DNA from: Escherichia coli
Lineage (GTDB): Bacteria > Pseudomonadota > Gammaproteobacteria > Enterobacterales > Enterobacteriaceae
DNA length: 64,000 nt
Assembly: GCF_003334765.1 (NCBI RefSeq)
Contig: NZ_QOWT01000001.1
Strand: one strand, 5' to 3'
A program made the translations under genes and the position numbers. A model generated the notes under the pieces. It worked only from the letters and a program-made list of their open reading frames with translations, did no database searches and had not been told where the DNA came from. Below, one piece after another: positions 60,157 through 60,791 of the stretch; the first letter of the stretch is position 1, and the number at the start of each line of letters is the position of its first letter.

Positions 60157-60179
60157 AAATGGTATTTAAAATGCAAATT
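60157..60179. promoter_or_regulatory. candidate NsrR operator in yeaR promoter
   Basis: AAATGGTATTTAAAATGCAAATT resembles the NsrR palindrome AAnATGCATTTnAAATGCATnTT. Confidence 0.5.
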
Positions 60180-60245
60180 ATCAGGCGTACCCTGAAACGG
60201 CTGGAATAAACCGTTTTCAGCGCATTCACCGAAGGAGGGAAAAGG

Positions 60246-60605
60246 ATGCTTCAAATCCCACAGAATTATATTCATACGCGCTCAACGCCTTTCTGGAATA
60301 AACAAACTGCACCTGCCGGAATATTCGAACGTCATCTTGATAAAGGAACGCGCCCGGGGGTTTACCCACGCCTTTCCGTTATGCATGGGGCGGTCAAATA
60401 TCTCGGCTACGCTGATGAACACAGTGCAGAGCCTGATCAGGTGATCCTTATCGAAGCGGGGCAGTTTGCGGTGTTCCCTCCAGAAAAGTGGCACAACATT
60501 GAAGCCATGACTGACGATACTTATTTCAACATTGACTTCTTCGTGGCTCCTGAAGTCCTGATGGAAGGTGCGCAACAACGGAAAGTCATTCATAACGGGA
60601 AATGA
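60246..60605 (+). CDS. yeaR: DUF1971 protein YeaR
   Basis: ORF 119 aa (MLQIPQNYIHTRSTPFWNKQTAPAGIFERHLDKGTRPGVY...). Confidence 0.88.
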   Translation: MLQIPQNYIHTRSTPFWNKQTAPAGIFERHLDKGTRPGVYPRLSVMHGAVKYLGYADEHSAEPDQVILIEAGQFAVFPPEKWHNIEAMTDDTYFNIDFFVAPEVLMEGAQQRKVIHNGK

Positions 60606-60608
60606 ATC

Positions 60609-60791
60609 ATGGGCAAAGCAACGTATACCGTGACCGTCACCAATAACAGCAATGGCGTTTCTGTCGATTATGAAACAGAGACGCCGATGACTTTGCTGGT
60701 GCCAGAAGTGGCGGCTGAAGTGATAAAAGATCTGGTGAATACCGTACGTTCTTATGACACGGAAAACGAACATGATGTTTGTGGTTGGTAA
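60609..60791 (+). CDS. yoaG: small protein YoaG
   Basis: ORF 60 aa (MGKATYTVTVTNNSNGVSVDYETETPMTLLVPEVAAEV...), 3 nt downstream of yeaR. Confidence 0.85.
   Translation: MGKATYTVTVTNNSNGVSVDYETETPMTLLVPEVAAEVIKDLVNTVRSYDTENEHDVCGW

Follow-up and report, generated by a model that had tools for sequence, protein, structure and literature searches.

The yeaR-yoaG operon of Escherichia coli: a dual-input NarL/NsrR promoter with an NsrR operator conserved across Enterobacterales

Organisation of the locus and its promoter

The window analysed is a stretch of 64,000 nucleotides from contig NZ_QOWT01000001.1 of an Escherichia coli assembly (GCF_003334765.1). Positions 60074-60938 exhibited 100% identity to the leuE|yeaR-yoaG|yeaQ region of E. 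coli K-12 MG1655, and the RefSeq gene order at the locus is leuE, yeaR (DUF1971), yoaG (DUF1869) and yeaQ. The segment 60157-60791 extends from the first base of the NsrR box to the stop codon of yoaG. The features of the locus are as follows:

60149-60164, plus strand: NarL 7-2-7 activator site TAACCAATAAATGGTA, centred at -43.5; the identical 16-mer is given in PMC10853779
60157-60179, plus strand: NsrR operator, 11-1-11 inverted repeat AAATGGTATTT-A-AAATGCAAATT, identified from matrix score, published site and conservation
60165-60170, plus strand: putative -35 hexamer TTTAAA, placed by geometry; agrees with TTGACA at 4 of 6 positions and lies inside the NsrR box
60188-60193, plus strand: putative -10 hexamer TACCCT (-12 to -7), placed by geometry
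60200-60245, plus strand: transcription start (G) and 46-nt 5' leader, with +1 derived from the published centre at -43.5
60200-60221, plus strand: possible 5'-terminal stem GCUGGAA/UUUCAGC of 7 bp, starting from nucleotide 1 (RNA fold, z = -2.2)
60232-60238, plus strand: Shine-Dalgarno sequence AAGGAGG in the yeaR 5' leader
60246-60605, plus strand: yeaR, intact ORF of 119 aa, DUF1971 small cupin
60609-60791, plus strand: yoaG, intact ORF of 60 aa, DUF1869, beginning 3 nt past the yeaR stop codon
60807-60829, plus strand: GC-rich hairpin GATGGCGCA-ATTTC-TGCGCCATC after yoaG, a perfect 9-bp inverted repeat followed by A8

In E. coli, yeaR and yoaG share one reading frame with TGA-ATC between them (60603-60611), such that a change to the stop codon would produce a fusion. 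The two Pfam domains, DUF1971 and DUF1869, do occur together in a few proteins of the databases (P0003, P0006 and P0014). The shared frame is probably not meaningful, since it is absent from Salmonella and from some Citrobacter loci.

The 16-mer TAACCAATAAATGGTA is the NarL 7-2-7 site described for the yeaR promoter, with its centre at -43.5, and a NarL dimer is bound there in the activation complex as seen by cryo-EM (PMC10853779). The sequence fits 10 of the 14 specified positions of TACYYMT-NN-AKRRGTA, a level of agreement reached or exceeded by 0.4% of random 16-mers, and exhibits the expected arrangement of inverted TACYYMT heptamers that are 2 bp apart and abut the -35 hexamer. The positions of +1, of the -10 and -35 hexamers (17-nt spacer) and of the NsrR box at -32 were obtained by arithmetic from the published NarL centre. 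Placement of the -10 hexamer in this manner agrees with PMC10853779, where the discriminator spans -6 to -1.

A scan of 60050-61250 against the sigma-70 consensus called no promoter, a result that is uninformative where a promoter needs an activator; hexamers too weak for a consensus scan are to be expected of a promoter that depends upon NarL. The NsrR box, centred on 60168, would lie at -32 relative to a +1 at 60200 and would cover the predicted -35 hexamer. In the abstract of the 2007 study by Lin et al. the operator is said to be placed at -32, in agreement with the derived value. The box also overlaps the NarL site, having 8 bp in common with the promoter-proximal heptamer.

Within the leader, a second predicted stem joins 60222-60227 to the region of the start codon. 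Leaders of Citrobacter and Salmonella have stems at +1 to +3, of a sequence unlike that of E. coli. The 5'-terminal stem was rejected as a family-wide feature after the assumed 5' end had been slid along the leaders of 72 species, where 14 loci had a stem at offset 0 as against 25-34 at neighbouring offsets, and it is kept for the Escherichia/Citrobacter clade only. An Rfam scan of 60000-61300 yielded no match at E values up to 1.

The hairpin at 60807-60829 has a predicted folding energy of -16.6 kcal/mol (z = -4.1). It is not called an intrinsic terminator, since it is followed by A8 and not by a T-run and is therefore non-canonical on either strand; judged from its sequence, it is probably the 3' end or a stabiliser of the transcript. 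A transcription unit that runs on into yeaQ as a three- or four-gene operon, as hypothesised by Conover et al., is unlikely. It is true that yoaG lacks a canonical terminator (hairpin plus T-run) at its 3' side and that terminator-like sites are called only from yeaQ onwards, inside that gene and shortly past it (the latter after its stop codon, 61201-61226). In at least 1,099 genomes, however, an IS200/IS605 element of approximately 1.9 kb stands between the two genes, and the gene 3' of yoaG differs in most other genera. As regards expression, the CFT073 ORF c2201, numbered next to yoaG, was induced 142-fold, whereas yeaQ is missing from the top-50 list of the same strain (PMC5320621) and did not share the upregulation of yeaR and yoaG seen in intracellular bacterial communities (PMC4959519).

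The NsrR operator and its conservation

The 23-mer AAATGGTATTTAAAATGCAAATT sits exactly at 60157-60179, 67 nt 5' of the yeaR ATG (60246), with its centre 78 nt from the ATG. A scoring matrix was derived from the 27 published 11-1-11 sites of Mehta et al. 2015 (PMC5320621, Table 4); the yeaR site and one duplicate were dropped, the 16 sites backed by ChIP-seq peaks were kept and the matrix was palindromised. The preliminary description had proposed an NsrR-like palindrome upstream of yeaR, consistent with nitric oxide-responsive control, and had named matrix scoring as a check. On the leave-one-out matrix the yeaR box scored 21.0 bits (the median of the training sites being 18.1 bits) and ranked first of 63,978 positions in the window, with the runner-up at 11.3 bits. 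A score of 21 bits was attained in none of 200 random 64-kb windows generated by a first-order Markov model, for which the mean maximum was 13.8 bits. The left half-site contributed 11.5 bits and the right half-site, ATGCAAATT, 9.8 bits.

The palindrome is thereby borne out, and it equals the published yeaR site letter for letter: the identical 23-mer is tabulated as the predicted NsrR site of yeaR, and its PatSer ln(P) of -17.05 places it 11th of 27 genome-wide (PMC5320621). Control by nitric oxide (NO) also finds support, yeaR being described as both NsrR-regulated and NO-responsive in that source. The reading of the sequence as an NsrR operator stood, but its overlap with the published NarL 7-2-7 site had been overlooked.

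In form, the box resembles the NsrR operators of ytfE, hmp, ygbA and hcp-hcr, with an 11-1-11 repeat and half-sites of the AAxxTGCATTT type. Its score falls within the range of ChIP-positive NsrR sites, and NO arising from nitrate or nitrite induces the genes of the NsrR regulon together. Unlike those four operators, that of yeaR overlaps a NarL site by 8 bp in addition to the -35 region, so that repressor and activator would compete. Compared with the other operators of the regulon it is of middling strength (11th of 27) and was missed by ChIP-seq in CFT073.

A profile built from 15 YeaR homologues yielded 80 loci, one per species, across Enterobacterales. The best match to the NsrR matrix in the whole locus of approximately 5.3 kb lay 61-87 bp 5' of the yeaR homologue in 77 of the 80, and a box of at least 14 bits was present at this distance in 76. 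For 76 distinct box-anchored sequences the mean information content per position was 1.25 bits within the box but only 0.20 in the upstream and 0.36 in the downstream flank, and the cross-species consensus of the box was AAGTTGTATTTTAAATGCACTTT. Both in a MAFFT alignment of 20 promoters and in the box-anchored set of 76, the NsrR box was the single conserved island of the promoters. Its conservation across the species loci indicates that NsrR control is an ancestral, family-wide feature. Among complete E. coli genomes, a 66-bp core promoter was present in 5,417 of 5,426 and was at least 99% identical in 4,527.

The NarL 16-mer was found near-verbatim, with no more than one change, in 21 of 26 loci of the Escherichia/Citrobacter/Salmonella group (L002-L027), and Citrobacter sedlakii and C. 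amalonaticus-type sequences and Intestinirhabdus have a different 7-2-7 sequence with 11-12 of 14 consensus matches. Activation by NarL is clearly present at least in the Escherichia group. Outside the Escherichia/Citrobacter/Salmonella group, counts of 7-2-7 sequences are confounded by the conserved NsrR half-site, with which the proximal heptamer overlaps. The NsrR box is kept in genera that do not have the E. coli NarL 16-mer, and its median score was 23.1 bits outside the group compared with 18.7 bits within. The lower scores within the group fit a dual-use constraint, since it is there that the NarL site overlaps the box.

Decay of the box, though both genes are retained, was observed at L059 (7.4 bits), L074 (5.9 bits), L081 (-2.0 bits) and, weakly, L022 (11.4 bits). 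A short 'AATA' or 'TAATA' motif 3' of the box is conserved across clades (alignment columns ~160-167, corresponding to ~60205-60209 of the window). In Enterobacter-type promoters the motif resembles an extended -10 element (TGnTGTAAT), which suggests that the promoter geometry of Enterobacter and Kluyvera may differ from that of E. coli.

The YeaR and YoaG products

YeaR matched PF09313 with an E value of 7.6e-23 (model positions 1-80 of 80) and is identical in sequence to PDB entry 3BB6, a small cupin. YoaG matched PF08956 with an E value of 5.1e-33 (model positions 2-59 of 59) and is identical in sequence to PDB entry 1NEI. The DUF1971 protein and the 60-aa protein had been described as functionally undefined. 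This assessment holds in that both remain Pfam domains of unknown function (PF09313 and PF08956); the solved structures 3BB6 and 1NEI, together with a published phenotype of a yeaR deletion, had not been taken into account. Deletion of yeaR in uropathogenic E. coli results in sensitivity to H2O2 and fewer type 1 pili and, at variance with TehB, no tellurite phenotype (PMC4959519). A yeaR-yoaG mutant of CFT073 keeps its anaerobic NO-scavenging activity (PMC5320621).

Long-form TehB carries DUF1971 at its N-terminus (Haemophilus influenzae, 3M70; 'TehB' of Vibrio fischeri, 3DL3), whereas YeaR is without the methyltransferase domain. Assignment of YeaR as a TehB methyltransferase was rejected, with a score of 42.4 bits against NCBIfam NF008992, for which the cut-off is 303; the match spans profile positions 7-104 of 289 only, representing the N-terminal domain. 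Compared with double-stranded beta-helix proteins of the cupin/JmjC type, such as the ribosomal oxygenase YcfD, identity is only 9-15% and YeaR is a minimal barrel of 119 aa.

YoaG is a small acidic protein, the C-terminal VCGW of which was invariant in 81 of 81 sequences examined. The DUF1971 and DUF1869 genes were adjacent in 80 of 80 species, with DUF1869 downstream of the DUF1971 gene or genes, and a DUF1869 gene also follows in further metagenomic loci. Distant DUF1971 contexts were considered as a source of a new functional partner and none was found; these were further copies of the DUF1971/DUF1869 module, again with an NsrR box, or in one case a gene standing alone that lacked a convincing box.

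Several variants of the module were observed. Two tandem DUF1971 paralogues precede yoaG in the Enterobacter/Kluyvera/Lelliottia clade (L043:2489-3395) and occur also at L030, L033, L036-L041, L057 and L083-L085; in the second paralogue 'HHNTK' replaces 'RHLDxGTR'. YoaG is approximately 111 aa in length, with an N-terminal extension of approximately 50 aa, in Klebsiella, Pectobacterium and Kosakonia (L065:2825-3160; L068, L070, L075, L080 and L081). The order on one metagenomic contig (L087) is DUF1971, DUF1869 (110 aa) and DUF1971.

Within E. coli, an 865-bp query was interrupted near 60755 in approximately 28% of complete genomes, 1,527 being without a contiguous match. In strain A11 (L082:4680-6400) an IS200/IS605 element, comprising a partial tnpA and a TnpB/InsQ gene, lies in the 3' end of yoaG and replaces its last 11 codons, so that DTENEHDVCGW becomes PVRRKTPSFRAGI. 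Of 5,426 complete E. coli genomes, at least 1,099 have the exact yoaG/IS junction, with loss of the invariant VCGW. A large natural lineage of E. coli can therefore dispense with the invariant C-terminus of YoaG.

In Enterobacter sp. BIGb0383, a second NsrR-type box of 24.9 bits lies directly 5' of a gene for a 260-aa class I SAM methyltransferase (L080:3634-4439). The gene adjoins the DUF1971/DUF1869 genes, and the best matches of its product were to the DVU_1556 family and to ArsM-like models. An NsrR-boxed methyltransferase beside the module was seen at this locus only and was absent from the other loci fetched.

As a working guess, YeaR and YoaG most likely act as a pair against nitrosative or oxidative damage. 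A more specific reading, in which the two form an obligate Enterobacterales module under ancestral NsrR control, with the terminal cysteine of YoaG as reactive centre and TehB-type SAM methyltransferases perhaps as partners, is quite improbable as a whole. Circumstantially, it draws upon the fusion of DUF1971 to TehB in Haemophilus, the NsrR-like box carried by E. coli tehA and the single Enterobacter sp. with an NsrR-boxed methyltransferase beside the module. Under such an arrangement the cysteine may trap or carry NO-derived or chalcogen species by means of a thiol or a metal, and strains of E. coli with IS-truncated yoaG would be natural loss-of-function variants.

Regulation of the operon

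The regulation of yeaR-yoaG is already published, and the present sequence result adds nothing new in this respect. Citing Lin et al. 2007, PMC5320621 describes yeaR as 'known to be regulated by NsrR', and the same source credits its NO response to Filenko 2007 and Pullan 2007 and notes that loss of repression in an nsrR deletion had already been reported. Anaerobic nitrate induced yeaR and yoaG of CFT073 approximately 160-fold, alongside ytfE, hcp and ygbA, by way of nitrate-derived NO (PMC5320621). NsrR ChIP-seq in CFT073 gave no peak at yeaR, which the authors judged a probable false negative (PMC5320621). Other papers present yeaR-yoaG as a target of NsrR and NarL in both E. coli and Salmonella; the Salmonella orthologue is handled as a gene of the NsrR regulon and is induced on NO-producing plant tissue, and the yeaR promoter serves as a nitrate sensor in engineered probiotics. 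Inside bladder cells the induction of yeaR and yoaG exceeded 30-fold (PMC4959519).

A close parallel is the promoter of E. coli ogt, the other one that is FNR-independent and activated by NarL alone, likewise through a 7-2-7 site that abuts the -35 hexamer (PMC10853779). Fis-dependent repression has been reported for both promoters; for yeaR, it is announced in the title of Squire et al. 2009, as cited in PMC10853779. Unlike yeaR, ogt depends on a tandem pair of 7-2-7 sites (-44.5 and -77.5), and no NsrR operator is described for it in the sources on NarL and the ogt promoter, PMC10853779 included.

The locus is almost certainly the yeaR-yoaG operon of E. coli K-12 with its known dual-input NarL/NsrR promoter. 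The sequence, score and conservation on which this rests are from the present analysis, the dependence on NsrR and NarL and the centre at -43.5 are from the literature, and the hexamers and occlusion we infer. In the mechanism envisaged, a weak core promoter (-35 TTTAAA, -10 TACCCT) would need phospho-NarL at -43.5, providing the nitrate/nitrite input, and NsrR, an Fe-S repressor, would have its operator in the palindrome at 60157-60179. Since the box lies over the -35 hexamer and over 8 bp of the NarL heptamer, NsrR bound there should keep RNA polymerase and NarL alike off the promoter. Nitrosylation of the NsrR cluster by NO would then release the repressor from the DNA and derepress the operon, with Fis supplying growth-phase repression on top.

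The resemblance to an NsrR site might instead be incidental, the AT-rich 23-mer being composed of a NarL heptamer, a -35 hexamer and Fis-type DNA, with control exerted by NarL and Fis only. The box does have the proximal NarL heptamer as its left 8 bp and the -35 hexamer in its middle, but 9.8 of the 21 bits come from the right half-site, which the NarL site does not reach, and in genera without the NarL 16-mer the box is not only conserved but higher-scoring (23.1 against 18.7 bits). Such a composite would accord with the negative ChIP-seq result for NsrR at yeaR in CFT073 (PMC5320621) and with Fis-dependent repression of the promoter, as the title cited in PMC10853779 has it; NsrR regulation of yeaR is nevertheless stated in both PMC5320621 and PMC4959519. 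An incidental resemblance is thus very improbable.

Scarcely credible is the further reading that the palindrome is the operator of another regulator, e.g. a different protein of the Rrf2 family with a similar inverted repeat. Rrf2 proteins recognise related AT-rich palindromes, and binding of NsrR at this site is a prediction; a matrix built from NsrR ChIP-seq peaks alone nonetheless picks the yeaR box as the single outlier in 64 kb. Induction, furthermore, follows nitrate-derived NO in step with that of ytfE, hcp and ygbA (PMC5320621).

The yeaR promoter thus represents a textbook overlap of nitrate (NarL) and NO (NsrR) control for which a cryo-EM activation complex is available, and yeaR and yoaG are among the most strongly NO- and nitrate-induced genes of E. 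coli. The observations that are new here, namely the box as the sole conserved island of the promoter, the constant linkage of YeaR and YoaG and the IS-truncated yoaG, are modest additions. Taken with the terminal cysteine of YoaG, the constant linkage, the widespread IS knock-outs and the ancestral box narrow the search for the function of YeaR and YoaG.
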